DNA of 32,000 bases from Candidatus Saccharimonadota bacterium (GCA_020160975.1 JAIUPJ010000001.1:390001-422000); one strand, 5' to 3'. Numbered from the stretch's first letter, positions 7,779-32,000 are shown. Translations and numbers: made by a program. The notes: generated by a model not told the origin, from the letters alone.

Positions 7779-7968
7779 AACTGTTATTCATTGTACTCTG
7801 TTTGTTATCTGAAGAGTATAGAGACATTGTAGCATAAATTACTACAAATTGCAATAGGCAATAAGCTAAAATATCACAAGAAAATAATCTTGCTTATCTT
7901 TTTTCGCATAAAGAAGAGAGTTGGTGTCATTGCTCTAGAGTTCAGAATGAGGCGTACCTAAAGTCACC

Positions 7969-8298
7969 CTACTCCTCAGAGAAGTCTGTCTGCATTTCGT
8001 TGGATGTATCCTCTGGCACCCCCTCGACTTCTCCACCAGGATTGCGGCGGTAGTACGTGATTAATCCCAGCATAACTGCATAAAATGTAATCCAGACAGC
8101 ATTAACAATGGTAAGTAGACGGTTGTGAATGCTCAAGGCGTACGTCAGCGAGACAAACTGCGTACCAAGCCAAAGTGTCCATGTTGCAAGATTGAGCTCG
8201 TCCGAGCGCTTCGCCAACAACAGCTGACGAACTTGCGGAAAGCTCGCGAGAACAGCTATCGTCGTAGAGCAGGCATAAAGGGTTTCAAAGAAATTCAT
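7969..8298 (-). CDS. SemiSWEET / PQ-loop family small transporter
   Basis: 109-aa ORF with three predicted TM helices and a PQ motif in TM1 (LASFPQVRQLLLAKRS). Its size and pattern match bacterial SemiSWEETs. It has an acidic C-terminal tail. Confidence 0.65.
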   Translation of the reverse strand: MNFFETLYACSTTIAVLASFPQVRQLLLAKRSDELNLATWTLWLGTQFVSLTYALSIHNRLLTIVNAVWITFYAVMLGLITYYRRNPGGEVEGVPEDTSNEMQTDFSEE

Positions 8299-8345
8299 AT
8301 TTGTTTTTTTGAGTTGTTACTTCTCTACTATATAAGCATAAGCTT

Positions 8346-8386
8346 GATAAAAAGTCAAGACGCTCTCCTGCTGGAAAGCGTCTTGA
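8346..8386 (-). terminator. rho-independent terminator downstream of rnj
   Basis: A perfect 11-bp stem pairs GTCAAGACGCT (8353-8363) with AGCGTCTTGAC (8376-8386). On the minus strand it is followed by TTTTTAT (8352-8346). Confidence 0.75.
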
Positions 8387-8414
8387 CATGACCAACGCTG
8401 TCTATACTGCTAAC

Positions 8415-12362: not shown

Positions 12363-12680
12363 CTAATTACTCAACAGAAATGCGAGGACATCGGGGAAAA
12401 ACAACTTGAGAAATAAAAACGCGCAACACAGCAGTCCTATCAAACAATACACAATTGCTGCATGTTTTCTTCCTATATCGCTATCGTCGCGCGAGTCAAA
12501 TACTGTCCGAAAGCGCGTCAGCCATAGTGACGCGCCGAGCACCACCATCCAACCGATGGCGGTGGGAATATCGGCCTCGGTCAAGTGGTAGCCTTTCGCT
12601 GAAAGCGCCACGAACCCTACGCTAATGACGATCGCAACGACGATCCATGCGGGGTTCGCAGATTTCGTAAGCCACGACAT
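12363..12680 (-). CDS. hypothetical integral membrane protein
   Basis: It has three hydrophobic helices (AWIVVAIVISVGFVAL, AIGWMVVLGASLWL, AIVYCLIGLLCCAFLFL). The ATG at 12680 lies 7 nt after the pnp stop codon. The ORF track's TTG at 12701 would overlap pnp by 14 nt. Confidence 0.7.
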   Translation of the reverse strand: MSWLTKSANPAWIVVAIVISVGFVALSAKGYHLTEADIPTAIGWMVVLGASLWLTRFRTVFDSRDDSDIGRKHAAIVYCLIGLLCCAFLFLKLFFPDVLAFLLSN

Positions 12681-12687
12681 CGCCCAG

Positions 12688-14808
12688 CTACTGCTGCTCA
12701 ATACCCTTCATCGTAAGGGAGAGGCGACCTTTTTCGTCGATGCCAGCAAGCTTGACGGTGACCATTTGGCCTTCTTTTAGCACATCGGTCACATTTTCAA
12801 CGCGCTGTTCGCTGATTTGGCTGATATGAAGCATGCCGTCGGTGCCTGGCATGATGTTGACGAAAGCACCAAAGTCCTTGATCGTGACGACTTTTCCGGT
12901 GTAGAGCTTGCCGACTTCTGGCTCCTCGGTAAGACCGCGAATCCATTCGAGAGCTTTCTCGATGCTCGCGGTGTCGTTTGAAGCAACGGTGATAAGTCCG
13001 TCATCCTTGATATCGATCATCGCACCAGTTTCACCGGTAATCTTGTTGATCGTCTCCCCGCCCTTGCCGATCACTGCACCGATTTTCTCAGGATTAATCT
13101 TGATCTTCTCGATACGCGGCGCGTAGGGACTAAGCTTCTCACGAGGTGCCGCAATAGTTGCGACCATGTGGTCGAGAATGTGCTTGCGACCGGGGCCAGA
13201 CTGCTTGATTGCATCCGCGAGAACAGAGACAGGCAGGCCGTGGACTTTCATGTCCATCTGCACCGCTGTAATACCATTTGCGGTACCCGTCACCTTGAAG
13301 TCCATGTCACCCGCAAAGTCTTCAGCATCGGCGATGTCGCTCAGCACGTAGTGCTTGTCGCCGTCAACCATCAGACCCATTGCGATACCAGATACCGGAG
13401 CCTTCAGTGGCACACCGGCATCCATCAGGGCTAATGTCGAGCTACAGGTCGCTGCCATACTCGTTGAACCGTTTTGGCTCATGATTTCAGTCACGCTACG
13501 GATGGCATACGGAAATTCTTCTTCGGTCGGCAGCACTGGAATGAGTGCGCGTTCTGCAAGATAACCGTGGCCGATTTCACGACGGCCTGGGCTACCAAGG
13601 CGGCGCACTTCACCTACCGTGTAGCCAGGTGCATTGTAGTGATGCATGTAGCGGCGCTCGCCGTCGGTGACTTCCATTGTATCTACAATCTGTGCAAAAC
13701 TGAGTGGTGCCAGCGTAACGATGTTCATGCCTTGTGTGACACCACGAGTAAAGAGGCTGGAGCCGTGGGTACGTGGCAGCAGGCCGACTTCGCTACTGAG
13801 CTCACGAATTTCATCCAGCTTGCGGCCGTCGGGGCGTACGCCGTCTTCGACTATGCCGCGGCGGACATCTTTGTGAAGCGCCATCGTGAATGCTTCATCG
13901 TATTCATCTTTCAATGCAGGATATTCTTCGACGCCAATCTTTTCAGTCATCGCTTCGTGGAATGTCCAGCGAAGTTCGTTGACCATCTCGTTGCGCTCTG
14001 GGTAGGCTTTGCGCAGTTTGTCGCCCAGCTTGCCTTTCACCCATTCATCAACTGCTTTTTGGATATCTTCATTTGGCAAAACTAGTTCATATTCTTGCGC
14101 TACTGGCGCCACCTTTGTGGCAAGCTCTCGCTGCAGTGAAATCGCCGGCTGGAAGGCTTTGAATGCCCAATCCATTGCGGCTACTAGATCGTCTTCAGAA
14201 ACTTCATTGGCACCCGCCTCTACCATCGTGATACCACTCTCGATGCCGGCCACCACAAGGTCAAGATCACTAGCCTCACGCTCCTCAGCGTTCAAAAATG
14301 CTTTGAATTCACCCTTGACCCGACCAACACGAAGTCCCGCCACTGGGCCGTCAAATGGCGTACCCGTAAGCATCAGCGCACTGCTGGCGGCGATCATTGC
14401 GACCATATCAGGGCGGAAATTTGGATCCATCGATAGCACGCTTGAAACCACCTGCACCTCTTGGCGATAGCCCTTCGGGAACAGTGGTCGAATCGGGCGA
14501 TCTATCAAACGACCGATTAAAATCGCTTCGTCGCTCGGACGACCTTCGCGCTTGATGAAGCGGCTGCCGCTGATCTTGCCCGCTGCATACATTTTTTCTT
14601 CGTAGTCGATCGACAGTGGGAAATAGTCGAGTACGACCGGTCGAGAGCCGACCATCGCCGTACCGAGCACCACGGTGTCGCCATAGGTAACGAGCACGCT
14701 CGCAGTAGTGCGAAAGCCAACACGGTTGACCTCAAGTGTCAATGGTTTGCCACAAAAATCAGTGGTAACAGAAATAATATCCTTGCCACTAGGGTTAATA
14801 ATACTCAT
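12688..14808 (-). CDS. pnp: polyribonucleotide nucleotidyltransferase (PNPase)
   Basis: It has two RNase PH domains plus KH (IGAVIGKGGETINKI) and S1 (GKLYTGKVVTIKDFGAFVNI) domains. I prefer the ATG at 14808 (MSIINPSGK) because a perfect AGGAGG (14817-14822) lies 8 nt upstream. The track's start at 14844 has no Shine-Dalgarno sequence. Confidence 0.95.
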   Translation of the reverse strand: MSIINPSGKDIISVTTDFCGKPLTLEVNRVGFRTTASVLVTYGDTVVLGTAMVGSRPVVLDYFPLSIDYEEKMYAAGKISGSRFIKREGRPSDEAILIGRLIDRPIRPLFPKGYRQEVQVVSSVLSMDPNFRPDMVAMIAASSALMLTGTPFDGPVAGLRVGRVKGEFKAFLNAEEREASDLDLVVAGIESGITMVEAGANEVSEDDLVAAMDWAFKAFQPAISLQRELATKVAPVAQEYELVLPNEDIQKAVDEWVKGKLGDKLRKAYPERNEMVNELRWTFHEAMTEKIGVEEYPALKDEYDEAFTMALHKDVRRGIVEDGVRPDGRKLDEIRELSSEVGLLPRTHGSSLFTRGVTQGMNIVTLAPLSFAQIVDTMEVTDGERRYMHHYNAPGYTVGEVRRLGSPGRREIGHGYLAERALIPVLPTEEEFPYAIRSVTEIMSQNGSTSMAATCSSTLALMDAGVPLKAPVSGIAMGLMVDGDKHYVLSDIADAEDFAGDMDFKVTGTANGITAVQMDMKVHGLPVSVLADAIKQSGPGRKHILDHMVATIAAPREKLSPYAPRIEKIKINPEKIGAVIGKGGETINKITGETGAMIDIKDDGLITVASNDTASIEKALEWIRGLTEEPEVGKLYTGKVVTIKDFGAFVNIMPGTDGMLHISQISEQRVENVTDVLKEGQMVTVKLAGIDEKGRLSLTMKGIEQQ

Positions 14809-18350: not shown

Positions 18351-20267
18351 ATGAGTACTACTTATGGTATAATAGTGGCAAATACTACTCAAAAAAATAA
18401 AAATATGCTTCACCACTACCACCTTCGCTATGTGATCTCCCACCTCCTAAAAAATAGGCGCTTGGCGCTGATCATGAGCAGTGTCATCATACTGTCGGCA
18501 GTTGTGACCTATCTCGTGCTCCGGACGAGCCTCCCGCTGACTCTTCGCTATGATGCAACCGACGTCAAGGTAGACGGCCCTCTTGCCATCACCCTCAATC
18601 AGCTCACGCACCCTATTGCGACAGATAAGGTACAGGTCGCTCCTGCGGTCAAGGGGACGTGGCAATACATTCAGCCCGATGTCACCAAAAACCCAAAGCT
18701 TGTGTTCACACCAGCGACCTACCTCAAAGAACACACCACCTACACGGTCACCATCCCTAATACAAAACGAGTATTTGGTGTCGAGCTAGAGGTGCCGAAG
18801 GTCTCATTTACCACCGAACGCGCGCCATCGCTCAAGAGTTCTGGCGCTGCAAGCTGGAAAGATGGACAAGTGGTTGCAGCCGATGAAACGGTACGAGTCG
18901 ACCTCGTCTCACCAAACCGTCACTTGCGTAAGCTAGAGCTGCGCACGACACCAGAGCTAGAAACAGTAAGCTCTGTACAGCGGGACCAGAGCTACTCCTG
19001 GAGCCCAAAGAATGGCGTCTGGCCACAAAACACCGATGTGACCATAGAGCTCTATGACACAAAAAATGAGCAGTCTTTGCTTAAAAAAACCATTCATATC
19101 GCTGCCGAGCCAGCGCTTACCTCTCCGCTTGCCCAAGGCAATATAGACGAGCGCGAGAGCATCAGCCTCACTTTCGACCAACCCATCGACCATCAGACTG
19201 CTCGTATCGCATTTGAGTTACCCGGTAAAGGCACCTGGAAAGATGGTACAACCTACGTATTTACCCCTGATAAACTGGAGCCGAACAAGAGCTATCCCTA
19301 TACTGTCGCAAAAGCGATGCGCAGTCGTGACGGCGGTATTCTGCAGCATGATATCGCAGGCTCCATCTCTACCGTCGGACCAATTACGGTTGTGGGCACC
19401 TCACCTCGTGGTGACGGTCTTGCCCAGGCAAGCCAAACGCTGTCTTTTACCTTTAGTCGTCCGGTAGATCATGTATCGGCCGAGCAGCGCTTATCGGTGT
19501 CTGCAGGGCAAGTGACGGGCATGTCATGGCGAGGAAATACACTCTACGCAACTGTAGCAAACCTCGGGTATCAACAGACCATAAGCGCCGCAATCGCTGC
19601 TGGCGTGAAGAATACAACATTTGGAGTACCGAGCACTCGCAGTTTCTCGCTCAGCTTTACCACAGAAGTGCGCAGCGCTCGATTGGACATTCCATTCTTT
19701 CGACAGCAACACGCTGCGACATGCACTGCAGCAAGCCTCCGCATGGCACTTGCCTACCGTGGCGTCGGTGCCGATGAAATAGGACTCGTTAACGCTATGG
19801 GCTACAATCCGCGGAGCATCGACAAAAGCACCGACCCTCCCGTCTGGGACGACCCTCAAACGATGTTTGTTGGGTCAATCGATGGGTCTATCACTGGCGG
19901 GACCGGTGCAGGACCAGATGCTCCTCCTGTAGCAAAAGCAGCGCGTGCCTACGGCCGCAACGCAAGTGCGGTCACAGGAGTAGACGCCGGGTGGATTGCT
20001 CAACAGCTCTATAACGGCAATCCTGTGATCATGTTTGGCGCCTTCAGCCGAACGGGTACTATCACCTGGAAAACACCAAGCGGAGACACACGTATCATGA
20101 ACCTCACAGGCCATGCCACTACTGTCACGGGAGTGAAAGGTGAACCATCTAACCCGATTGGATTCTGGGTAAATGACCCTCTCCGTGGTATATCATACTG
20201 GACGACAGCTCAGGTCAACGCAAACATTGCGCTCGACCCGGACAGACAAGCGGTTGTCATCTACTAG
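18351..20267 (+). CDS. membrane-anchored protein with tandem Ig-like (SbsA/Big-type) domains and C-terminal peptidase C39-like (YvpB-type) domain
   Basis: 638-aa ORF with a TM segment (LALIMSSVIILSAVVTYLVL). It carries four repeats of the type xxLxFxxPxxH (LAITLNQLTHP, ISLTFDQPIDH, LSFTFSRPVDH). The C-terminal LDIPFFRQQHAATCTAASLRMAL...LTGHATTVTGV supplies a Cys/His pair. An extended -10 TGgTATAAT at 18365-18373 lies inside the first codons, so the ATG at 18405 may be the real start. Confidence 0.7.
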   Translation: MSTTYGIIVANTTQKNKNMLHHYHLRYVISHLLKNRRLALIMSSVIILSAVVTYLVLRTSLPLTLRYDATDVKVDGPLAITLNQLTHPIATDKVQVAPAVKGTWQYIQPDVTKNPKLVFTPATYLKEHTTYTVTIPNTKRVFGVELEVPKVSFTTERAPSLKSSGAASWKDGQVVAADETVRVDLVSPNRHLRKLELRTTPELETVSSVQRDQSYSWSPKNGVWPQNTDVTIELYDTKNEQSLLKKTIHIAAEPALTSPLAQGNIDERESISLTFDQPIDHQTARIAFELPGKGTWKDGTTYVFTPDKLEPNKSYPYTVAKAMRSRDGGILQHDIAGSISTVGPITVVGTSPRGDGLAQASQTLSFTFSRPVDHVSAEQRLSVSAGQVTGMSWRGNTLYATVANLGYQQTISAAIAAGVKNTTFGVPSTRSFSLSFTTEVRSARLDIPFFRQQHAATCTAASLRMALAYRGVGADEIGLVNAMGYNPRSIDKSTDPPVWDDPQTMFVGSIDGSITGGTGAGPDAPPVAKAARAYGRNASAVTGVDAGWIAQQLYNGNPVIMFGAFSRTGTITWKTPSGDTRIMNLTGHATTVTGVKGEPSNPIGFWVNDPLRGISYWTTAQVNANIALDPDRQAVVIY

Positions 20268-22398: not shown

Positions 22399-24210
22399 TT
22401 ACTGGCCTGGGATACGGAATTGAGACGGGTCTGTTGGACTCGATGCAGAAACTGGACGAAGATCAGGAGAACCGACAGGCGCGGGAGCGGTAGCCACTGG
22501 CGCACCAAATGGTGGTAATGTTGGCGCGGCGACATCACCTGGAAGCGGTGGCAGGGTAGAAAAGTCTGGCAACGGTGGTAGTGGTGGCAAGAGCGGATCG
22601 GCCGCGGCTGGTGCAGGAGAAGTTGGCAAAGTGCTCTGCGGACTCTGTAGGCTTTGTGGGCTTGGCGCACCAGTCAGTGCGGCGTCGACTGCAGCCATCG
22701 CATTCTCCTGATGTGCGCGATTCTGAGCGTCAATCTCGGCAAGCGTTGGTATTGCTGCTACTGGTGTAGGCGGTTGGATCGGTGCAACGTGTGTTGTCGT
22801 GCCGGCATTGCTTGCCGCCCCTAATACATCGACAACAGTCGGTTCTTCGACCGCGCTGTCATTGATTGCATTGATGGGCGCCTGAAATGCAGGCTCGTCG
22901 GCTACAAAGCTGCTGCCGCCATGCGTCAAAATGGTTTTATTGCGATCCTCATTGATCTCACGCTGCTTGTCGACCGCTGCTTGTTCACTGGTTGCATTGA
23001 GCGTCCCCCCGAGTGTTGGCTCGACAGACTGATTATCTGATGTGCGCCACGTATCCGTCGTCACAGCGCCACGAAGCGGTGCTGGTTGCACTGGCTGCGG
23101 TGCGACTGCCGCAAGATTGTCAGCAAGTTCTTTTTCGGCGACAACAGTCGCTTCCCTCTGTCTCTTTGCGACAACACGAGCCGCCTGCTTTTTGAGCTCT
23201 TCTTCAGCCCGCGTGACTGCTTCAGCTGATTGGTCAGAGGCAATTTCGTCACGCACTTCATCGAGAGTGCCCTCGGGTACATGCGAAATCGCTAATGACC
23301 CGTCTGCAGCTGGCGTATCTTTTGGTGCCTCTTTTGGCGCTTCCTTTGGTGTAGCTTCCTTGGCGGGATGCTCGCTGCGATCAACTTTTGCGGGTTTGTC
23401 CTCTTGCAGATCGCCTTCTGATTTTTCTTGCTCTTTCTCTTTTGCAGGCAAGGCGCTGCCTTCTTCGAGCTTGATAGCAATCAGCTGCTGGTTTGCCCCT
23501 GCAGCCATTAGTTGTGCGGCGGTGGTCATGACGTCAGCAGATGTCTTGTCATTGCTGAATCGCTCTGTGGCGGCAACAATACCCGTCAAAAGAGCGGTAG
23601 CAATTTGCTCGTCAAGAAGCGCTTTGTCAGATTTAAGTGCTTCCGCAAGCCCTGCCATCATCTCTGAATAGCTACTTGCTGCTGTATCAACCCATTCTAT
23701 GCCGCCCAGGTTACTGGCTTCACCAAGCGACACCGCTGCCACCGTCGCATCATGAAGAATGCGCCCATGACTCTCAAGAGCCTTGTCGAGATCTTCACTA
23801 CTCCTAACGCCGATGGCTAGTACGAACTCGACATTATAGTCACCTTGGCTAAAATCGAGATCCTTATCAGAAATTGTCGTTCGATACGGTGTGATAAAAA
23901 TCTTCACCATATCATCGACAACTTTGTAGCGCAAATGGTCGGCTTTTTCTTTGTCGAGTGCAATGATGAAATCTCGCAGACTATCGACCGTATTCTCAAA
24001 CGTTTTTTCAGGCTGGAGAAACTCGATGGCAGGGGGAACTGCACCGCTGAAAACTGCTGTACCATGCTTGTTGAGCTTGTTGATGAGCAAGGTGATACCA
24101 AGCGCCGCGCTCAACTCATCGACAGATGGGTTACTGTTCACGGTCACAAGAATATTGTTGCTGTCTTTGATCTTTTCGACAATCTGTTTTTTGACGGTGG
24201 TATCTGCCAT
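22399..24210 (-). CDS. DHH-fold (NrnA-like) protein with degenerate catalytic motifs and long Pro/Ala/Glu-rich disordered C-terminus
   Basis: 603-aa ORF. The N-terminal ~250 aa follow the NrnA DHH layout (ILVTVNSNPSVDELSAALGITLLINKLNKHG; VDTAASSYSEMMAGL; ATALLTGIVAATERFSN). The DGD and DHH metal motifs are replaced (SVD, LHD), and no DHHA1 domain is present. The C-terminus contains KEAPKEAPK and LPPLPPLP. Confidence 0.6.
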   Translation of the reverse strand: MADTTVKKQIVEKIKDSNNILVTVNSNPSVDELSAALGITLLINKLNKHGTAVFSGAVPPAIEFLQPEKTFENTVDSLRDFIIALDKEKADHLRYKVVDDMVKIFITPYRTTISDKDLDFSQGDYNVEFVLAIGVRSSEDLDKALESHGRILHDATVAAVSLGEASNLGGIEWVDTAASSYSEMMAGLAEALKSDKALLDEQIATALLTGIVAATERFSNDKTSADVMTTAAQLMAAGANQQLIAIKLEEGSALPAKEKEQEKSEGDLQEDKPAKVDRSEHPAKEATPKEAPKEAPKDTPAADGSLAISHVPEGTLDEVRDEIASDQSAEAVTRAEEELKKQAARVVAKRQREATVVAEKELADNLAAVAPQPVQPAPLRGAVTTDTWRTSDNQSVEPTLGGTLNATSEQAAVDKQREINEDRNKTILTHGGSSFVADEPAFQAPINAINDSAVEEPTVVDVLGAASNAGTTTHVAPIQPPTPVAAIPTLAEIDAQNRAHQENAMAAVDAALTGAPSPQSLQSPQSTLPTSPAPAAADPLLPPLPPLPDFSTLPPLPGDVAAPTLPPFGAPVATAPAPVGSPDLRPVSASSPTDPSQFRIPGQ

Positions 24211-25919: not shown

Positions 25920-26891
25920 CTATTGTGGCATAGGCTGACAGACGGAACAAACATGAGTACCACGACCAGCGACTTTGATCTTCTCGACAATCACATCGGG
26001 ATGTCTCGGACATGGCAAGCCTTCTTTGCGAAAGACACGCGCGAAGTCGATGTAACTCCCCCGCTTGCCCTCGGCGTTGACATAGTTTCGGTCGGTACTG
26101 CCGCCTTTTTCGATGCTGAGATTCATGACGTATTTAATTTCCTTCAACAATTCGACTAGTTGCTCATCAGATACATCTCGTACGCGGGTCGCAGGGTGGA
26201 TCCGCGCGCCCCACAAGCTTTCATCGGCATAGATATTTCCTACTCCGGCCAGCACAGTTTGGTCGAGAATTGCCGCTTTGATGGTAGTGTTATTGCGACG
26301 ACGAGTTCGGGGGATAAATTCGCTACCTGTAAATGAATCTTCAAGCGGCTCTGGGCCTACGCGTTGCATAAAATCGATACTCGGCACTTCAACAGTCGGG
26401 AAAAGTTTTAACCACCCAAATTTGCGCTGGTCATTAAAATACAGATGCGAGCCATCGGTAAACTCAATCACCACGCGCGTGCTCCTGTCGGGCAATTCAC
26501 CCACCAGTGAATCATTTGGATGCCCCGCACCAAAGCGGACCTCACCCATGACATCACCGGTGCTTCGCACGCGCTTTAGGAGGCGGGGCGACGAACCTGA
26601 ATTCGCTTCAGAATCGGGCGGAGAGGTAGACCCCTCCTTTACATATACGAGCTGCCCAGTCATTTTGAGGTGAATGACAAGTGTGTAGTGTGTTGAAAGA
26701 TCAATCAAAAGTACCTTTGCTCTTCGACGAATATCGACAACACATGAACCGATCAAAAACTCTCGAACCGACTGCGGCTCGTTAGGAAAACTCTTAGGAG
26801 AGTCGCGCACCGAAGTATCTCGCACAACTTTGTGCATGATAAGTGACGCAAGACCGCGCCTAACTGTTTCGACTTCAGGAAGTTCGGGCAT
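25920..26891 (-). CDS. mutM: formamidopyrimidine-DNA glycosylase (Fpg/Nei family)
   Basis: The N-terminus MPELPEVETVRRGL carries the catalytic Pro2/Glu3. It has an H2TH region and a C-terminal zinc finger CPRH...CSVCQ. TATACT (26898-26903) lies 6 nt upstream of the ATG. Confidence 0.9.
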   Translation of the reverse strand: MPELPEVETVRRGLASLIMHKVVRDTSVRDSPKSFPNEPQSVREFLIGSCVVDIRRRAKVLLIDLSTHYTLVIHLKMTGQLVYVKEGSTSPPDSEANSGSSPRLLKRVRSTGDVMGEVRFGAGHPNDSLVGELPDRSTRVVIEFTDGSHLYFNDQRKFGWLKLFPTVEVPSIDFMQRVGPEPLEDSFTGSEFIPRTRRRNNTTIKAAILDQTVLAGVGNIYADESLWGARIHPATRVRDVSDEQLVELLKEIKYVMNLSIEKGGSTDRNYVNAEGKRGSYIDFARVFRKEGLPCPRHPDVIVEKIKVAGRGTHVCSVCQPMPQ

Positions 26892-26908
26892 ACATCTAGT
26901 ATAGCGCT

Positions 26909-27703
26909 CTAGGCGACGAGCGAGTAATCGCCGCTTTGCATGATGTCCACCGCCATATCGGCGACGTCCTCTGCTCGGTACATAATAGCGTTGTGGCCGC
27001 TCAGCACGCGAGAGTCTAGCTCATACAGGTTGAATCCAGCATAGGTTAGCCCCCGCCGAACCTTATCTGGAGAAATGAGACGATCATGCGGAAAAAGCAG
27101 CGCGTCGCGTCTGATATGCTCATCAAGACCACGCGCCTGTTCGGCAACGTAGTGCCGGCTCGCCATGAATGCCGTCTGCAATAAAACATGCGGTGGACTG
27201 GAGACGAAATAATCAAACCCATCGGCCACCACTCGAAGCTCGTCGAGCATATGCTTATTGTCAGGCCGGTCACGCAAGCTCGACAAGGCGCGAAAGGTAT
27301 TCACGCCACCATAGCCAGCTGGCTGCATGAGGAGAAGACCTGATATATCATCAGGTGCTCTCAGCGCCGCCATTGTCGCGTGCATACCGCCGAGTGAATG
27401 GCCGATGACCCGAACGGGCTTTTGTCCATCATCGGCAAGCGATTTGACGACCTCGATCACTTCATCGGTACAGACTGGCGATGCACCTTCGTGCGCCATA
27501 GTGACAGACGTCACTCCCCTTTCGGCGACATCTCGAGCAAACGGATTGTAGAGTCGGCGCTTCGCCATAATGCCTGGAACGATGAGAGCGACTTCGTCAC
27601 TCGTCACTTCCTCTGGTGTACGTACAGTATAATGCACCACTCGTGAGCCAAGCTCGAGCGTATGATCACGGGTCTCGTACCGCAACCGTTCCAGGCTTTT
27701 CAT
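26909..27703 (-). CDS. alpha/beta hydrolase
   Basis: 264-aa ORF with the nucleophile elbow GHSLGG. The substrate is unknown. Confidence 0.75.
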   Translation of the reverse strand: MKSLERLRYETRDHTLELGSRVVHYTVRTPEEVTSDEVALIVPGIMAKRRLYNPFARDVAERGVTSVTMAHEGASPVCTDEVIEVVKSLADDGQKPVRVIGHSLGGMHATMAALRAPDDISGLLLMQPAGYGGVNTFRALSSLRDRPDNKHMLDELRVVADGFDYFVSSPPHVLLQTAFMASRHYVAEQARGLDEHIRRDALLFPHDRLISPDKVRRGLTYAGFNLYELDSRVLSGHNAIMYRAEDVADMAVDIMQSGDYSLVA

Positions 27704-27767
27704 GACATTACTATGCTCTTAGGGTGCCGAAAAAGCAATAGCCTGAACGCACTATCTCACGCTAGAA

Positions 27768-28229
27768 TTACTGCTTAGTAAGCTGCTCATTAATAACACT
27801 TGTCACCTTGCTATCTTCACGAAGGTTTTGCCAATAAAGAACTTGGGATGATTTCAGAGCGATGCTATCCTGCGGGCCATAGAGCTGATCGGTTGCCTTA
27901 ATAAGTGTAGTCTTCGGTGCATCTTTACTCGTGTCGTTTGCCGTGTTTACTTGTAGGATTTTCTCAATATACGGTGATTTTAGCTGCAAAAACTCACCAC
28001 TGACATTTTGCAACTTGCCAAAGTATAGCTGTCCATTCGTCATATAGACCACTTGGTAACTGTTACGGTCTATGCGCTGTGTTGGATTGAGAATAGTCAT
28101 AGTTACCGCAAACCCAAGCGCCAATAGTCCAATAAATACAGCCGTCAAGAAAAGTTTCGTATAGCGATGTGTCGGCCAAAACATGCTTCGGTGTTTCTTG
28201 CGTGTCGTAATCTCTGAGCTTTTGTTCAT
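27768..28229 (-). CDS. hypothetical bitopic membrane protein
   Basis: 153-aa ORF with a basic N-terminus, one TM segment (LFLTAVFIGLLALGFAVTMTIL) and an exodomain containing YQVVYMTNGQLYFGKL. TATACT (28239-28244) lies 9 nt upstream of the ATG. Confidence 0.7.
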   Translation of the reverse strand: MNKSSEITTRKKHRSMFWPTHRYTKLFLTAVFIGLLALGFAVTMTILNPTQRIDRNSYQVVYMTNGQLYFGKLQNVSGEFLQLKSPYIEKILQVNTANDTSKDAPKTTLIKATDQLYGPQDSIALKSSQVLYWQNLREDSKVTSVINEQLTKQ

Positions 28230-28244
28230 ATATTCTTCAGTATA

Positions 28245-28619
28245 TCACTCGTTATTGGTCTGATTTGGTGTATCGATGACTGCAGGACCGACATCAACAA
28301 TGCGGTCAATCTCGGGACGATAGATGATTACCTTTTGAAGATTTTTGTATATCAAAATCTTATCGCCATTTTTTACTTTGCCGCGGAGATACCCGCTCGC
28401 GACTTTGCTACTATCGACGACTGTTATGAGCGCGGGCTCTTCATCGCTCGGCAATACGTAGTGCCTACTAATAGCCTCTTTCACTTGAGAAAGCGACGAC
28501 AAATCGCTCTCACGGCTCATTTGCGACCGAGTGTAGGCTCCTGCACCACTCACGAGCATAACTAGTAGCACGACGAGAGCAGATAGTATTTTTTGTTTTT
28601 TTGTCAATCGACTCATCAA
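28245..28619 (-). CDS. hypothetical bitopic membrane protein
   Basis: 124-aa ORF with one TM segment (ILSALVVLLVMLVSGAGAY). Its ATG overlaps the stop of the upstream 682-aa gene in ATGA (28616-28619), which suggests translational coupling. Confidence 0.7.
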   Translation of the reverse strand: MMSRLTKKQKILSALVVLLVMLVSGAGAYTRSQMSRESDLSSLSQVKEAISRHYVLPSDEEPALITVVDSSKVASGYLRGKVKNGDKILIYKNLQKVIIYRPEIDRIVDVGPAVIDTPNQTNNE

Positions 28620-30664
28620 TAGTCACTTTCTACGTAGACACGATTAACGTTTATCTGTACGGCAGCTGCGGTGCCACCGTTATTCATATACTGGTGATGC
28701 GTCAGTAGTGCAGTGCTCGAAGGCATGTCAGTTGATATAGTACCGCTAGTAGAGGCGCCCGTGTCGAGTCGTTGCACACGATACCCAATACTGCTCCCGT
28801 TCGCCGCAGCGTACAGTATGAGCTCATAGACGGCATCTATGTTGTTCGTGGGGAAATTTGCACCGAGATCAATCTTTGTAGCAGTACCCGCAGCGTCGTT
28901 ATGCATAATCTGCAGATTAGCGTCGGCGCTGTCCCAACCAACACCGAGCATATTAACTATAGCTGATGGGTTGATTGATGTAGACGTCGCGCCCGTGGTC
29001 GCAGTTAACCCGCTAAAGAGCCTCTGGTTGGCAGTCGTTGTCGAAGTGCTAAAGCGTGAAGCATAAAAGAATCCGCCCAAGCCTGCCGCATTACCTCGCC
29101 ATACCAGCGGTGCGGTAGAGCGTAATTCTGCGGCAGCGTTTGCTGTCGTCGCACTAGACACCCTAACCCGGCGCATCGAATTAGCCAGGTTAGTAGTAGT
29201 AATCGCCGGTGTCGAAGCTGTTCCCACTGTCGTGTTCGGCATGCCAAGTGTGTTTATCGTGGTACCGGTACTTGGCAGTAGTATTGCAATATTATTTGCA
29301 AACAATGCTGGCTGGTACGGGGTATCCAAGCCTGAGGGCCCAACAGATTTAAGTATCATTCTTCCGGCAATCTCTTTGGCGTAGATTTTCATACTACCAG
29401 CAGTGGGTACAGAGGGTTCATCTGTAACAGCAGCCATCTGAAGGCTGCCCGAAGCAATGTCAACGCCTATGTCAAAACCGCCAGCCACCTTCAGCCCTAT
29501 CTCCGTACCTGCGCCTGGCGTCGTTGGTCCCTCTATTTTGATGCCATACGCAGAAACGCCGCTCGCTGGACCAGTTGCATCGGCAACGATTCTCAGCCCC
29601 GACCACTCGCTCAGTGCGGTCGTACCTGGCACGAAGTCAACACGCATTCCAGCGCCCTCAATATCCCCTGCGCCACCAGCGTATTTGACATCGATACCAT
29701 TGACGTTATCAGCTGTTACAGCCTGTCCTGTATTGTCGACCGTAAAAAGACTCGACGTCGGCGCAGCACCGGCGGCGACTCGCACACCCTTGGCAGCAGT
29801 TGTCGTGATGGTTGCTGGGCTTGTCGAGCTGTCATATGCCTGCTGAAGCGTGCTACCCCCGCCGCTACCTATACAATCTGTCCAAGCGCCAGCCTGATAG
29901 CAGCGGAATTTGTTGTTGGTGGAGTTATAGTACATGGCGCCATTCGTTGATGTCGCACCCGCTCCAGGGTCACTGGCGTTGCTATCCATGACAAGCACCT
30001 GAGCAGCTGCATCAGCTGCACCGATTTTGACGACAGCATTTGTCGTATCCACAGTAAATAGCGATGAACTATTGCCGACCGTGAAAGCAGCCGTGCTGTT
30101 GGTCGTGACACCAAGCGTGCCAGTAAACACCGAGTTCGATCCGAGCTGTGCAAACGCCCCACTATCAAGTCCATCCAACGTATCAGAGTTAAATGCATAG
30201 GACGAGCTGCCAAGCTTGTTGCGGGGAGACATGGGGCCTTCAGAGTAGGCTTCGCAGGCGGCAGTTGTACAGGTGGCAGTCGCGGGGGTTGGGAGTTCTA
30301 TCTCAAAGTAGAGAGCATTGGCATTGTTGAAGAGAGTTGGCGAAAGACTAGAGACATCACCCAGCTGGACACTAAAGAGCCCGCCCGTGGTAACGGTCAC
30401 GCCAGTAGTTGCAGAGTTTGCTCGTTGCTCGCTCCAGAGGAGTGTGCCAGCGCTCGCAGCATCGTAGAGACGGAACTTCATATTGTAGGTGCCAGGAGCC
30501 ATTGGGTTGCCTGAGACATCGTTAATACGACCTTGAAAGTTAAGTTTGTAGGGAATGGATTGGAGGGCAGAGGAGGGAGTGCCATGCACAAACAACACTA
30601 AGCCAGCACACAAGGCTGGTAGCGCAAAAAACATCAGTCGTCGATTTCGCACGCCGTTGGTCAC
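28616..30664 (-). CDS. secreted tail-fibre-like surface protein
   Basis: 682-aa ORF with a GTG start and the signal peptide MTNGVRNRRLMFFALPALCAGLVLFVHG. The N-terminal module IPYKLNFQGRINDVSGNPMAPGTYNMKFRLYDAASAGTLLWSE...GLFSVQLG is typical of tail-fibre and surface-fibre proteins. It is Thr/Ser/Ala/Gly-rich and beta-rich throughout, with two Cys pairs. Confidence 0.7.
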   Translation of the reverse strand: MTNGVRNRRLMFFALPALCAGLVLFVHGTPSSALQSIPYKLNFQGRINDVSGNPMAPGTYNMKFRLYDAASAGTLLWSEQRANSATTGVTVTTGGLFSVQLGDVSSLSPTLFNNANALYFEIELPTPATATCTTAACEAYSEGPMSPRNKLGSSSYAFNSDTLDGLDSGAFAQLGSNSVFTGTLGVTTNSTAAFTVGNSSSLFTVDTTNAVVKIGAADAAAQVLVMDSNASDPGAGATSTNGAMYYNSTNNKFRCYQAGAWTDCIGSGGGSTLQQAYDSSTSPATITTTAAKGVRVAAGAAPTSSLFTVDNTGQAVTADNVNGIDVKYAGGAGDIEGAGMRVDFVPGTTALSEWSGLRIVADATGPASGVSAYGIKIEGPTTPGAGTEIGLKVAGGFDIGVDIASGSLQMAAVTDEPSVPTAGSMKIYAKEIAGRMILKSVGPSGLDTPYQPALFANNIAILLPSTGTTINTLGMPNTTVGTASTPAITTTNLANSMRRVRVSSATTANAAAELRSTAPLVWRGNAAGLGGFFYASRFSTSTTTANQRLFSGLTATTGATSTSINPSAIVNMLGVGWDSADANLQIMHNDAAGTATKIDLGANFPTNNIDAVYELILYAAANGSSIGYRVQRLDTGASTSGTISTDMPSSTALLTHHQYMNNGGTAAAVQINVNRVYVESDY

Positions 30665-30728
30665 TTGCCCCTTTCCGATATACTACTCACTCCACACCAT
30701 CGTCAATGTATAGTGTGGCTCAATTGTA

Positions 30729-30757
30729 ACTATACCGCTTATGTCATCACTTTTCAA
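30729..30757 (-). promoter_or_regulatory. internal promoter TTGAAA-N17-TATAGT ahead of the 682-aa gene
   Basis: The -35 element TTGAAA is at 30757-30752 and overlaps the stop of the upstream gene. It is followed by a 17-nt spacer and the -10 element TATAGT at 30734-30729. Confidence 0.45.
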
Positions 30758-31611
30758 CGGGCAGTGGCGCGCTGACGGCGCAATCTACGCACGAGCACTC
30801 CGCCCGCACCAACGGCAACTGTTGCAGTAATCGGTAACAACCAGCGCCAATAGCCTGTGATGGCAAAAAAATATGTCGACTTCTCCCCTGTTTCGGCGTG
30901 GGCAGTTAATTTAATTACCCCTAGGTAATCTCCCTGTTGACGATAGTCAACACTTCGCGCTCGGCCTGCAAACACCAAAGGACCTTCGATTGTCTTTGTC
31001 GTATACGGCCAAACATTAACAACAATCTGCGGGTAATACCCCGTTGACTGCCTTGGATCGGCCATATTTTTGACCACAAACGAAGCAGTGAGTGCGTCAC
31101 CAATCTGAAATGGCGATGCGGCCAGCGAAGCAATGGTAGCTTTGCGGTCTGTTGAGGCGCCATTTACTATCGATAGAAGCGTCCCAACCCTTACTGATGA
31201 CTGCGCGCCCTCAACCTGCTGGGGCTGAGTAGAAGCAAAAATTGCCGCAAATACCTCACCTGACGGCAACTTACTGCTATCAATCGAAAAGGCGAGATGC
31301 AGGGTTTCGCGTGGACCTAATTCCGCTTCAGTATAATCAAGCATCACACCTTTACTGACTTGTTCATCATCAAAAAATTCGAGATTCCCTTCGTCGTCTA
31401 TTTGTCGAAACGCCTGCACCGTAAGCTTCAGCTTAACCGCGCTACCGCTAGGATTTGCAATATCAACAAAGCCTTTTTTACTCTCACGTTTTACTAACGT
31501 TGCATTGTAGTGAAGTGGTGTGATACGCAAAGAATCAGCAAAGGCACTGTGTCCCGGCAAAAGACCGCCAGCAATCATCCCAAGCACCGCCATCAGCCAC
31601 CACACTCTCAC
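30754..31611 (-). CDS. secreted two-domain beta protein with C-terminal membrane anchor (DUF916/DUF3324-like, chaperone-like)
   Basis: 285-aa ORF with a GTG start and a signal peptide ending SAFA/D. It has two beta-rich halves (LRITPLHYNATL...VKLKLTVQAF; VRVGTLLSIVNG...) and a C-terminal TM segment plus basic stop-transfer (WRWLLPITATVAVGAGGVLVRRLRRQRATAR). Confidence 0.6.
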   Translation of the reverse strand: MRVWWLMAVLGMIAGGLLPGHSAFADSLRITPLHYNATLVKRESKKGFVDIANPSGSAVKLKLTVQAFRQIDDEGNLEFFDDEQVSKGVMLDYTEAELGPRETLHLAFSIDSSKLPSGEVFAAIFASTQPQQVEGAQSSVRVGTLLSIVNGASTDRKATIASLAASPFQIGDALTASFVVKNMADPRQSTGYYPQIVVNVWPYTTKTIEGPLVFAGRARSVDYRQQGDYLGVIKLTAHAETGEKSTYFFAITGYWRWLLPITATVAVGAGGVLVRRLRRQRATAR

Positions 31612-32000
31612 GGCAGCATCGTCCCTGTCACGGTCACAATATTGGTATATATACCCGCTGCTTGCGTACTGGTCACATCAAGCTTGAGCTTTAGCCCAAG
31701 CACATCCTTCACGCCAACCCCAGTTCGCGAGTACACCGTTGTTGCCGTACCTGGCAAGGCAGCGTAGGCGTTTCCCGCACTCCATTTTCCGTCGATCGCC
31801 GTTGCGTTCGTGCTAGCCAGACTGAACCCAAGACCTTTTGTAGTGCCTTCGCTCCATGTCGTAGGGCTTGCAACGGTTGAAGAAATTGCAGGGATTGTGT
31901 TTGGGCCACTGGTAAGATTTTGATTTTGCTGGATTGCCACGCTGTAGTTCGAAGCATCTGTACGAACAATGGCATCAAACGAAACCGCCTGTGACGAACC
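31608..32000 (-). CDS. partial (5'-truncated by window edge) secreted WxL-like protein
   Basis: The frame is open from the window edge (...GSSQAVSFDAIVRTDASNYSVAIQQNQNLTSG...). It ends ...DVTSTQAAGIYTNIVTVTGTMLP. Its stop codon overlaps the downstream GTG start in GTGA (31608-31611). Confidence 0.6.
   Translation of the reverse strand, partial: GSSQAVSFDAIVRTDASNYSVAIQQNQNLTSGPNTIPAISSTVASPTTWSEGTTKGLGFSLASTNATAIDGKWSAGNAYAALPGTATTVYSRTGVGVKDVLGLKLKLDVTSTQAAGIYTNIVTVTGTMLP

Follow-up and report, generated by a model that had tools for sequence, protein, structure and literature searches.

A probable usher-less pilus or adhesin locus beside a swappable tail-fibre-like adhesin in Saccharibacteria

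Introduction

Usher-less Pam pili with chaperones anchored by a transmembrane (TM) helix have been described in Ca. Mycosynbacter amalyticus (bioRxiv 10.64898/2026.03.03.709456, v2 June 2026; proteins QHN43268-43274; PDB entries 25PZ and 25QA). PamC and PamD are described as chaperones of the FimC/PapD kind, which carry a TM helix at the C-terminus and complement the C-terminal domains of pilins without an usher, and the filaments of Ig-like subunits joined by strand exchange were seen directly. In the same preprint, a "tail fibre-like protein" is a central node among the pam neighbours and co-localises consistently.

WxL/Csc clusters are known from the Lactobacillales and Listeria (Firmicutes). 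They comprise CscA, which is a WxLIP protein (PF06030, PF11797 and a TM helix), together with small and large WxL proteins (PF13731), and a cluster is recognised by at least two PF13731 proteins within four genes. The WxL domain has 160-190 aa and two Trp-x-Leu motifs, and for WxLIP, insertion of a strand into the WxL partner has been reported (PMC10599100). Among fibres, Bdellovibrio bacteriovorus makes chimeric mosaic adhesive trimers (MATs), represented in NCBIfam by NF053851 (Caulton et al. 2024, PMC10769870).

Here, we analysed a stretch of 32,000 nucleotides (the window) from a Candidatus Saccharimonadota bacterium (GCA_020160975.1 JAIUPJ010000001.1:390001-422000). An earlier note on this DNA had proposed that five consecutive minus-strand genes at one edge of the window form a cell-surface fibre or adhesin assembly operon that is not a described system; the second part of this proposal is outdated in view of the Pam pili in the June 2026 preprint and the WxL/WxLIP clusters of Firmicutes. 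Our results make it fairly probable that the locus encodes a surface pilus or adhesin built by chaperones that are anchored in the membrane, without an outer-membrane usher, beside a swappable tail-fibre-like adhesin.

Results

All five minus-strand open reading frames (ORFs) are present, and they are the downstream half of a larger cluster that is cut by the window edge. In related contigs, another pair of subunit and anchor genes and a gene for a membrane protein, which were missed in the first reading, are found upstream of position 32000, and the genes of the cluster run in the order small subunit, 308-aa anchor, membrane protein, lectin subunit, 285-aa anchor, fibre, a 124-aa protein in some loci, and a 153-aa protein. 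This order is retained in the loci of 51 species-level Saccharibacteria genomes and in two metagenome contigs, and the cluster, which is flanked by housekeeping genes (polA on one side; fpg, a holA-like gene and truB), has the same location across species. There are two to three subunit genes per cluster, with an anchor gene directly after each subunit gene. The earlier note had tied its reading to conservation of the gene set, and because the neighbourhood is maintained in about 50 Saccharibacteria species, a conserved cell-surface appendage or adhesin assembly locus is supported on this point. The proposal that the products are exported or anchored was also borne out: the 285-aa protein has a signal-type helix and a C-terminal helix, the fibre and the 124-aa and 153-aa proteins have an N-terminal hydrophobic segment, and the full-length lectin subunit has a signal peptide. 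ORF scans agreed with the reported lack of sortase, LPXTG motif, usher and type IV pilus genes in the window: neither an LPXTG-type C-terminus nor a prepilin motif occurs in its ORFs of 80 aa or more, and a domain scan of ten large ORFs gave no match to an usher, a sortase or a type IV pilus component. The called genes of three related contigs (L001, L002 and L056) likewise lacked an usher domain.

The claim that all five genes are tightly coupled was borne out in part. The lectin subunit gene and the 285-aa gene share a GTGA stop/start overlap (31608-31611, minus strand) that is read in the sequence, and the same 4-nt overlap occurs at this junction in 42 of 52 related loci. The ATGA overlap claimed at 28616-28619 is a misreading, since the minus strand there reads TAT TGA TGA; the fibre and 124-aa genes still overlap, either by TTGA (TTG start at 28619) or by TGATG (ATG start at 28616-28614). 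The 15-nt spacer between the 124-aa and 153-aa genes was reported correctly. Tight coupling fails before the fibre gene, where an 89-nt intergenic gap (30665-30753, minus strand) had gone unmentioned; the corresponding gap measures 40-125 nt in most of 41 related loci. The gap carries a sigma-70-like site (TTGAAA-17-TATAGT at 30757-30729), and promoter-like sites in the region are no more numerous than in shuffled sequence. The gap may hold an internal promoter that splits a pilus block from a fibre block. Since the gap separates the 285-aa and fibre genes, the five genes are probably two coupled blocks and not one uniformly tight block.

This gap bears on whether the two blocks belong together. 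If the pilus and anchor genes and the fibre genes (682, 124 and 153 aa) were two unrelated modules that happen to be neighbours, the five-gene operon would be no functional unit, and the gap with its promoter-like site would be expected, as would the several loci in which fibre copies are multiple or lie elsewhere (the fibre is located elsewhere in L018, L039 and L041), some of which run from the 285-aa gene straight to the 153-aa gene or to fpg. Bdellovibrio MAT fibres, moreover, work without any pilus system. Against this separation, the fibre gene comes after the 285-aa gene in about 41 of 52 loci that differ widely in sequence (30-50% identity), and the Pam preprint independently reports a tail-fibre-like gene co-localised with pam. 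The link between the fibre block and the pilus block is positional only; we consider it somewhat unlikely that the modules are unrelated.

We next describe the 285-aa protein (30754-31611, minus strand). The AF2 model (pLDDT 94, pTM 0.80) agrees with the architecture that had been read from the sequence, with a helix at residues 2-16 in the signal peptide (aa 1-25), strands in an Ig-like domain 1 (aa 29-128; 31228-31527) and in a second domain (aa 141-252; 30856-31191), and a C-terminal TM helix (aa 255-284; 30760-30849) followed by the basic tail RRLRRQR. The earlier note had likened the protein to CscA-type proteins and also to Ig-fold pilus chaperones, and the structure comparison found both. 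When the model was searched against the PDB with Foldseek, ranks 1-2 were EfmWxLIP1 of E. faecium (9i25_C and 9i1y_A), 9i25_C being a WxLIP bound to WxL, and the following matches were the chaperone-usher (CU) chaperones CfaA, FimC, CsuC and PapD in complex with pilins (Foldseek probability 1.0, TMt 0.45-0.55). The likeness to pilus chaperones is therefore real at the level of the fold. At the level of sequence, hhalign against seven authentic Firmicutes WxLIP proteins (DUF916+DUF3324) from plasmids gave 96.4% (E=1.3e-9) for the 285-aa family, 96.6% (E=6.8e-10) for the family of its 308-aa paralogue and 98.7% (E=3e-16) for remote, bridging relatives. As a negative control, reversed profiles scored 25 or less. 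The alignment reaches across the second domain (206 columns for the paralogue family and 250 for the bridging relatives), and a profile of the remote relatives places EfmWxLIP1 first among PDB sequences. In contrast, the 285-aa family matched the E. coli CU chaperones at 0.4%. Because the WxLIP profile match is 96-99% and that to E. coli chaperones is under 1%, the likening to CscA was right.

The relationship is distant by Pfam. PF06030 (WxLIP_PGBD/DUF916) did not match the 285-aa protein even at E<=10, and it appeared below threshold in 16 of 34 paralogues (best 8e-5) and in 7 of 10 remote relatives (best 25.5 bits against a cut-off of 27.3). PF11797 (DUF3324/WxLIP_HBD) is absent from the reported Pfam matches of the 285-aa protein, the paralogues and the remote relatives, and PapD_N/C gave no match. 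The 285-aa family comprises 1039 clusters at E<=1e-3. It is paralogous to the upstream 308-aa family (hhalign 100%, E=2e-54), and the two proteins have an identical layout, sharing with WxLIP the signal peptide, two Ig-like domains, TM helix and basic tail; unlike WxLIP, they are about 50-70 aa shorter and fall below the Pfam thresholds. Taken together, these profile and fold comparisons give good support to the 285-aa protein as a remote CscA/WxLIP homologue (DUF916+DUF3324+TM).

The ORF cut by the window edge (31608-32000, minus strand) is the 3′ end, 130 codons, of the gene for the large lectin subunit. A full-length copy of 462 aa with a signal peptide is found at 8616-10004 of contig L001, which is 96-98% identical, and the family consists of secreted proteins of about 440-460 aa. 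Laminin_G_3, a ConA-like lectin domain, lies in the middle of the L001 copy (E=1.4e-18), and the C-terminal 150 aa are homologous to the family of the small subunit of about 200 aa (hhalign 97.6%, E=3e-12). By this homology, the cut ORF is the C-terminal pilin-like domain of the lectin subunit. Conservation is highest at both ends of the lectin subunit and lowest in the lectin part, and a variable lectin domain with conserved assembly ends is a pattern as in tip adhesins; the layout of lectin plus pilin domain likewise resembles FimH, PapG and CsuE. The model of the small subunit (pLDDT 90) matched mostly CU pilins (CfaB, CsuA/B, Caf1, FimA/F/G and the pilin domains of PapG and CsuE), and these matches are weak (best E=3.8e-3, most 0.05-1, TM 0.3-0.55). 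The subunits reached about 5% or less against pilins in hhalign. Weak SCPU matches were seen in 12 of 48 small-subunit members (best E=0.0026, 18.6 bits against a cut-off of 22.4), and the one inspected for extent spans only the last ~43 residues.

The earlier note had read the cut ORF as resembling a WxL domain with Trp replaced. The motifs stood up in part: NYSVAIQQNQNL and YTNIVTVTGTMLP of the subunits align with the two authentic WxL motifs at a similar spacing (about 104-112 residues, compared to 86-120 in authentic WxL), with Tyr instead of Trp at both positions (NYSV, and TVTG or YTA), and the similarity is not statistically significant. The homology itself is without statistical support, and the cut ORF could not be demonstrated to be a WxL-domain protein: PF13731 matched 0 of 48 small-subunit paralogues and did not match the partial ORF of the window at E<=1, hhalign of the subunits against WxL gave 0.1-5.6% with scores of 12-25, equal to the reversed controls, and no WxL chain of the PDB ranked in the top 50 when the small subunit was compared by fold.

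These results can be set against a static arrangement like that proposed for the Csc/WxL clusters of Firmicutes, in which the two anchors would hold their cognate subunits 1:1 at the surface and nothing would polymerise. The anchors are indeed related in sequence to WxLIP and not to CU chaperones, the pairing of genes is 1:1 with translational coupling, the two motifs align, and a small subunit, a large subunit and a DUF916-type protein are exactly the parts of the published WxL cluster definition. The resemblance extends to a small subunit that consists of the domain only, a large subunit with this domain after binding domains, an adjacent anchor gene, and WxLIP as the best solved-structure match of the 285-aa protein. 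In addition, the fold of the small subunit may be self-complete and have no need of a donor strand, because its N-terminal segment packs on the domain with high confidence in the model. However, counted by PF13731, the cluster has none of the two proteins by which WxL clusters are recognised, the fold matches of the small subunit are dominated by CU pilins, and strand-exchange filaments were directly seen in another saccharibacterium with TM-anchored chaperones. The locus also differs from WxL clusters in having two anchor paralogues per cluster, no sortase and no LPXTG CscD-type gene, and a CPR host in place of a Firmicute. On balance, we judge a static complex to be quite unlikely and favour chaperone-assisted assembly of a surface pilus or adhesin.

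The 682-aa product (28616-30664, minus strand) had been called tail-fibre-like, and its matches agree with a mosaic fibre adhesin. After an N-terminal hydrophobic segment (aa 8-30), a conserved beta domain (aa 30-171; 30152-30577) matches positions 7-157 of the 162 in Bdello_MAT_N (NF053851; E=2.4e-6 for the whole protein and 6.8e-8 for the N-terminal 240 aa). This model was matched by 36 of 38 N-termini of the family (best E=1.5e-11), all under its curated 60-bit cut-off. A variable shaft leads on the same strand to the C-terminal tip (aa 408-682; 28619-29443), which matches phrog_13925 (E=8.6e-69) and is 30-45% identical to hypothetical proteins of Rhodobacter, Microcystis, Pseudanabaena, Flavobacterium and Curvibacter phages; relatives of the tip occur in six phage lineages, where they are unannotated. 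Compared to the near-identical strain L001, the first 300 aa of the fibre are 100% identical, while the identity beyond is 23-68%. Nucleotide homology with L001 ends at about 29500 and restarts at about 26537, which places an approximate recombination boundary at 29500-29765 inside the fibre gene (minus strand). Across species, the fibre is conserved only in the N-terminal ~220 aa. Taken together, these results show that the fibre tip is swapped between near-identical strains.

Two bitopic proteins are encoded behind the fibre. The 124-aa protein (28245-28619, minus strand; TM aa 8-30), whose gene overlaps the fibre stop codon, stands behind 14 of 15 fibres with a phrog_13925-type tip and behind none of the 29 with other tips; it thus accompanies one specific tip type. 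It had no match in Pfam, NCBIfam or PHROG. The 153-aa protein (27768-28229, minus strand; TM aa 23-50) belongs to an orphan CPR family with the consensus YQxVxLxNGQxYFGKLQN...VYGPED...FWQNL and no relative in Pfam or the PDB. It usually ends the fibre block, and in 30 related loci it lies behind fibres of differing tips.

The phage-type tip and its exchange between strains are what one would see if the fibre and the small genes were a prophage or phage-derived tail module, that is, remnants of a receptor-binding cassette and not host genes. This origin is extremely improbable in our judgement: other phage genes are absent, the locus sits between housekeeping genes at the same site across species, the N-terminal 300 aa of the fibre fall in a MAT_N-type family that is cellular and conserved throughout the relatives, and the phage homologues of the tip lack neighbours like the 124-aa and 153-aa proteins. 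The fibre resembles MATs in a conserved, putatively MAT_N-like beta-rich domain of ~130-150 aa right after the predicted signal peptide, in variable C-terminal tips with "tip swapping" and in phage-related tip domains, and it belongs to an organism that lives on other bacteria. Unlike MATs, it has no detected S74 chaperone/protease domain, it is encoded beside a pilus block, and behind it come small bitopic proteins, of which one is tip-specific and which are not described for MATs.

Discussion

The closest described system is the Pam pilus, to which the locus is likened by published description and not by sequence. Both belong to the class Saccharimonadia, export all components by Sec, and have neither usher nor sortase. 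As in Pam, a pair of FimC/PapD-like proteins have two domains and a C-terminal TM helix, another Ig-domain protein with a TM anchor is encoded between them, and a tail-fibre-like gene adjoins; when reversed, the Pam order PamT-(A,E)-PamD-PamR-PamB-PamC mirrors the order small subunit, anchor, membrane protein, large subunit, anchor found here. The anchors of 31 and 34 kDa compare with 36.5 kDa for PamC and 37.4 kDa for PamD, the large subunit of 47 kDa with 38.7 kDa for PamB, and the small subunit of 21 kDa with 25.6 kDa for PamT. There are further differences. One two-domain subunit is found here as opposed to three in Pam (PamA, B and E), and the N-terminal part of the large subunit carries a Laminin_G_3 lectin domain, of which the preprint makes no mention. 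The paired cysteines reported for PamA/B are missing from both L001 subunits, and the ATP-synthase, CorB or MFS neighbourhood of Pam does not occur here. The third protein of the block (273 aa) does not fit the description of PamR, because it has one Ig-like domain and three predicted TM segments, whereas PamR is RbmA-like with two FnIII domains and one TM segment. The preprint does not mention WxL or WxLIP, and a full-text literature search returned no paper joining Saccharibacteria and WxL.

The folds of the 285-aa protein and the small subunit also resemble those of chaperone-usher pili of diderm bacteria (Fim, Pap, CFA/I, Caf1 and archaic Csu with SCPU-type pilins). Unlike these, the locus has no usher gene, no outer membrane is expected, the putative chaperone is membrane-anchored and not soluble, and there is no sequence relationship to the E. 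coli chaperones or to the pilins.

For the first block, we propose a subunit system of the Pam/WxLIP type in which chaperones assist without an usher; the window contains only the final one and a half genes of this block. Its Sec-exported subunits would share an Ig-like pilin-type domain, alone in the protein of ~200 aa and joined to the variable ConA-like lectin in that of ~460 aa, and each would have a cognate membrane-anchored protein with two Ig domains, the 308-aa paralogue upstream of the window and the 285-aa protein within it. An anchor of the 285-aa type, held by its C-terminal helix in the cytoplasmic membrane, would capture the newly exported subunit and may insert a beta-strand into its incomplete sandwich (donor-strand complementation), with the highly conserved SVRVGTLLSIVNG, where domain 1 of the 285-aa protein ends, as a candidate donor strand. 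The subunit could then pass by strand exchange into a thin Pam-like filament with a lectin tip, or alternatively stay displayed on its anchor. In the second block, the MAT-like fibre would hold its constant N-terminal domain at the cell surface and point the exchangeable C-terminal tip outward, and the two small membrane proteins, one tip-specific and one general, probably help to fold or anchor it.

The new points that emerge from this locus are the link to WxLIP and the tip cassette. Together, the two blocks are likely the host-attachment gear of this epibiont, which would bind its host through equipment whose variable parts are the lectin domain and the fibre tip.

Gene organization and conservation of the locus

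Five consecutive minus-strand ORFs (31608-32000, 30754-31611, 28616-30664, 28245-28619 and 27768-28229) had been listed as a candidate operon for a surface fibre or adhesin. All five were confirmed in the window, and the ORF crossing the window edge runs for 130 codons without a stop. The GTGA overlap at 31611-31608 and the 15-nt spacing of the last two genes, which encode proteins of 124 aa and 153 aa, were also confirmed. An ATGA overlap had been read at 28616-28619; the minus strand is TAT-TGA-TGA there, and thus the overlap is TTGA (with a TTG start) or TGATG (with an ATG start at 28616). An 89-nt gap between the genes for the 285-aa protein and the fibre had gone unremarked. A TTGAAA-17-TATAGT site is present in this gap region (~30729-30757), and such sites are no more frequent across the region than in shuffled sequence. 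As claimed, no LPXTG-type C-terminus occurs among the window ORFs of at least 80 aa, and no prepilin motif was found in the same set.

Elsewhere in the window, the ten large ORFs have housekeeping or cell-wall functions, with FtsK, RNase J, PNPase, TruB and UDG among their products. A prophage reading of the locus was rejected on genomic context. Among the other window genes, 18351-20267 (plus strand) encodes a 638-aa protein with bacterial Ig-like Big_5 and Peptidase_C39_2 domains, which is found in the same place in two related contigs (L001 and L002); 1043-2710 (minus strand) encodes a 555-aa protein that joins Beta-lactamase2 and PG_binding_4 peptidoglycan-binding domains; and 22399-24210 (minus strand) is a 603-aa ORF without a Pfam match that has an equal-length ORF at the matching position in L001.

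An exact look-up of the 285-aa product gave no match. Through a protein 99% identical to it we reached L001, a JGI metagenome contig that matches the window at 95-98% identity on both flanks of the locus and reveals the region past position 32000. L001 shows that three further genes, encoding a 273-aa protein, a 308-aa protein and a 205-aa secreted protein, lie upstream of the cut ORF, which is the end of a lectin subunit gene. The 308-aa protein has the same layout as the 285-aa protein. The 273-aa protein (L001 7773-8594, upstream of the window) consists of one Ig-like domain with a weak Glucodextran_B match (E=1.5e-5), a linker rich in Ser, Thr and Pro and, at the C-terminus, three predicted TM segments; it could serve as a platform or tether in the membrane.

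Scanning one genome per GTDB species gave 51 additional loci, nearly all with a Saccharibacteria or Saccharimonadales label, and their gene order was derived by tblastn and ORF extraction. The recurring order is small subunit (one or two copies), 308-aa type, 273-aa type (not always present), lectin subunit, 285-aa type, fibre, 124-aa protein (not always present) and 153-aa protein, often followed by fpg. The junction of the lectin subunit and 285-aa genes is a 4-nt overlap in 42 of the 52 loci, and the 308-aa and 273-aa genes overlap by ~32 nt in most loci. In the related loci the gap between the 285-aa gene and the fibre gene is usually 40-125 nt, and the junction of the fibre and 124-aa genes ranges from -8 to +5 nt. 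The recurring order and these junctions show that the cluster extends past the five genes first listed and looks like two coupled blocks. Its reading as a surface fibre or adhesin assembly locus holds. In another carrier of the locus, the closed 1.09-Mb metagenome contig L056, tatA and tatC lie within the cluster at 12580-13828, between the 273-aa-type and lectin subunit genes.

The 285-aa and 308-aa anchor proteins are remote homologues of WxLIP

The 285-aa protein (30754-31611, minus strand) has hundreds of homologues, all without Pfam annotation and, where named, from Saccharibacteria; direct Pfam and NCBIfam scans of the protein itself gave no match. Its AlphaFold2 model, built from a 120-sequence alignment (pLDDT 94, pTM 0.80), shows a signal-type helix at the N-terminus, then two beta-sandwich domains, and a helix at the C-terminus (residues 255-284). 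When the model was compared with the PDB using Foldseek, E. faecium WxLIP, both alone and in complex with a long WxL protein, took ranks 1 and 2 (9i25_C and 9i1y_A; E about 1e-9), followed by the chaperone-usher chaperones CfaA, FimC, CsuC and PapD and then by other tandem Ig barrels.

The earlier note had likened the architecture to that of CscA-type proteins, which is correct as remote homology: three indirect routes converge on WxLIP. First, WxLIP_PGBD (DUF916) was matched below threshold by 16 of 34 members of the 308-aa family and by 7 of 10 remote relatives from an exhaustive HMM search, with a best score of 25.5 bits against the cut-off of 27.3 and nearly the whole model covered. Second, a profile of the remote relatives placed EfmWxLIP1 first among 177,635 PDB sequences (E=0.003); the 285-aa, 308-aa and small subunit family profiles, each used alone, found no relative among PDB sequences. 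Third, we used hhalign with a comparison set in which plasmids of Enterococcus, Listeria and Lactococcus supplied seven authentic WxLIP proteins and eleven WxL proteins, and E. coli K-12 supplied six chaperones and fourteen pilins. The probability of homology to WxLIP was 96.4% for the 285-aa family (E=1.3e-9), 96.6% for the 308-aa family (206 columns) and 98.7% for the remote relatives (250 columns, E=3e-16), whereas the same families gave less than 1% against the E. coli chaperones. The real scores against WxLIP were 74-121, compared with at most 25 for reversed-profile controls. The likeness to pilus chaperones that had also been proposed therefore holds at the level of the fold but not at that of the sequence. 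The 285-aa and 308-aa families matched each other at 100% (hhalign, E=2e-54) and are clear paralogues.

The subunits: a probable pilin-like fold and, in the larger one, a variable lectin domain

As seen in L001, the cut ORF (31608-32000, minus strand) encodes the C-terminal part of a secreted protein of 462 aa that carries a Laminin_G_3 (ConA-like lectin) domain (E=1.4e-18). Its last 150 aa are homologous to a family of small proteins of ~200 aa (hhalign 97.6%, E=3e-12). Since the 130-aa window fragment returned only four partial proteins as a query, a complete small-subunit paralogue, P0137, was modelled in its place (pLDDT 90). Its Foldseek matches were individually weak (best E=3.8e-3), and about 40 of the top 50 were chaperone-usher pilins or pilin domains, including CfaB, CsuA/B, Caf1, FimA/F/G, PapG and CsuE; no WxL chain was among these 50. 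Membership of the archaic pilin family SCPU was rejected: it was matched weakly by 12 of 48 members of the small-subunit family, and the best match (E=0.0026), the only one examined for extent, spans just the last ~43 residues.

The cut ORF had been described as WxL-like, and two local motif resemblances do exist, with similar spacing: NYSVAIQQNQNL of the subunits aligns with GWSLSVVQNGQF of WxL proteins, and YTNIVTVTGTMLP aligns with YTTTLTWVLSDTP, the motifs being ~104-112 residues apart in the subunits and 86-120 in real WxL proteins. However, profile similarity was not significant. None of the 48 small-subunit family members matched Pfam WxL (PF13731), and when the subunits were compared by hhalign with authentic WxL domains or E. 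coli pilins, probabilities were 0.1-5.6%, with scores equal to those of reversed controls. Trimmed domains, a joint profile and greedy alignment likewise gave subunit-WxL scores within the range of reversed controls. The motif resemblance offers a lead rather than evidence of membership, and the proposed WxL identity is unproven.

Conservation in the lectin subunit family is highest in the N-terminal ~70 mature residues and in the C-terminal domain, and variation is greatest in the lectin domain. An adhesin whose assembly parts stay constant while its binding domain diversifies would be expected to show this pattern. In the loci L032, L033, L036/L037 and L041 the lectin subunits are 650-720 aa long (gene at about 7000-9000) and carry an additional segment between the N-terminal part and the conserved C-terminal domain.

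The fibre tip is replaced as a cassette

Mosaic adhesive trimer (MAT) fibres are defined by adhesive tips that can be exchanged and by a constant beta domain of ~130 aa that follows the signal peptide (PMC10769870). Residues 30-171 of the 682-aa fibre (28616-30664, minus strand) match NCBIfam Bdello_MAT_N under the curated cut-off, as do 36 of 38 homologous fibre N-termini (best E=1.5e-11). Residues 408-682 match phrog_13925 (E=8.6e-69) and share 30-45% identity with unannotated proteins from phages of Rhodobacter, Microcystis, Pseudanabaena, Flavobacterium and Curvibacter; no partner like the 124-aa or 153-aa protein was seen among the unannotated neighbours inspected beside these phage homologues.

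When the window was compared with L001, the first 300 aa of the fibre were 100% identical and the remainder 23-68%, while the 124-aa protein was 53% identical, the 153-aa protein 43% and the product of the next gene, an alpha/beta hydrolase (26909-27703), 26%. Between flanks that are 95-98% identical, the difference (window 26537-29765, L001 11850-15612) is a strain-level cassette replacement with its boundary inside the fibre gene, after codon ~300. Across species, conservation is confined to the first ~220 aa of the fibre, and several loci (L004, L025, L035, L036 and L040) encode two or three fibres that differ in their tips. L001 also has, downstream of its fibre block, a 113-aa ORF (13907-14248) that is 68% identical to fibre residues 7-104 and, from this similarity, appears to be a remnant or spare copy of the fibre N-terminus.

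In loci L001-L053, the 124-aa gene (28245-28619 in the window) follows 14 of 15 fibres with a phrog_13925-type tip and none of 29 with other tips. This bitopic protein, for which direct scans of Pfam and NCBIfam gave no match, thus behaves as a partner or chaperone specific to one tip type would. The 153-aa protein (27768-28229, minus strand) is found with many tip types and in 29 related loci. Its ectodomain carries a strongly conserved signature (YQxVxLxNGQxYFGKLQN ... VYGPED ... FWQNLRxDSKV), and the family has no Pfam or PDB relative and none detected outside this locus context; a direct NCBIfam scan of the window protein was likewise negative.

Comparison with WxL clusters and Pam pili

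According to a published prediction, WxLIP inserts a strand into WxL (PMC10599100). The locus resembles the WxL/WxLIP system in its cluster logic and anchor protein but not in its subunit family. The earlier note knew of no described system of this kind, a statement superseded by a June 2026 preprint with cryo-EM structures of the Pam pili of the saccharibacterium Ca. Mycosynbacter amalyticus (10.64898/2026.03.03.709456). In these pili, donor-strand exchange joins pilins that are each built from a beta-sandwich N-domain and a truncated, Ig-like C-domain. The FimC/PapD-like chaperones PamC and PamD end in TM helices, PamT is a pilin of one domain, and PamR serves as a TM-anchored tether; the system lacks an usher and consistently has a tail-fibre-like gene nearby (10.64898/2026.03.03.709456). 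Compared on the basis of this published description, the locus fits in kind and gene order, and the 285-aa and 308-aa proteins are like PamC and PamD in layout. It differs in the number and sizes of its components, its recognisable lectin domain, the lack of paired cysteines in the L001 subunits and its genomic neighbourhood, and the 273-aa protein does not fit the RbmA-like description of PamR. WxL is absent from the preprint and our literature search found no paper mentioning both Saccharibacteria and WxL, so the WxLIP homology of the 285-aa and 308-aa proteins is an added point.

We propose that, after Sec export, each subunit would be captured by its cognate membrane-anchored two-domain protein, which would complement the Ig-like domain of the subunit with a strand; the candidate chaperone strand is SVRVGTLLSIVNG (aa 139-151). 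The 4-nt overlap of the lectin subunit and 285-aa genes would fit 1:1 co-production. The subunits could then polymerise by strand exchange into a thin lectin-bearing filament or be retained as anchored complexes. The MAT-like fibre would be a second, exchangeable adhesin, with its two small membrane proteins probably aiding folding or anchoring.

A wider reading, which we offer tentatively and hold to be possible but somewhat doubtful, is that the Firmicutes WxL/WxLIP (Csc) complexes and the Pam-type pili of CPR bacteria descend, as separate branches, from a single ancient system in which single-membrane bacteria combined chaperones and subunits without an usher. The locus would be a simple intermediate that pairs WxLIP-homologous anchors with subunits of pilin fold, in which traces of both WxL motifs survive. 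It would also be coupled in function to a MAT-like fibre, whose tip and tip-specific partner gene swap as a cassette, retargeting the epibiont to new hosts.

Implications for Saccharibacteria

Saccharibacteria live attached to other bacteria and, to our knowledge, how they recognise their hosts is largely unknown. The original observation was largely correct, and two parts are worth following: the link between WxLIP and Pam, and the tip cassette together with the partner gene specific to it. The homology of the chaperone/anchor proteins to the WxLIP/CscA of lactic acid bacteria, enterococci and Listeria, a link not drawn in the Pam preprint, could bring together two surface systems that are poorly understood and point to strand insertion as a mechanism common to both. 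The MAT-type N-terminal fibre domain appears to reach from Bdellovibrio predators to CPR epibionts. The recently reported way of building appendages without an usher, with membrane-anchored chaperones, probably extends to about 50 more species or above, where it takes a simpler form that includes a lectin. Two candidates for determinants of specificity emerge, and each can be compared with host range: the lectin domain, which varies, and the fibre tip, which is swapped and inherited along with its 124-aa partner.
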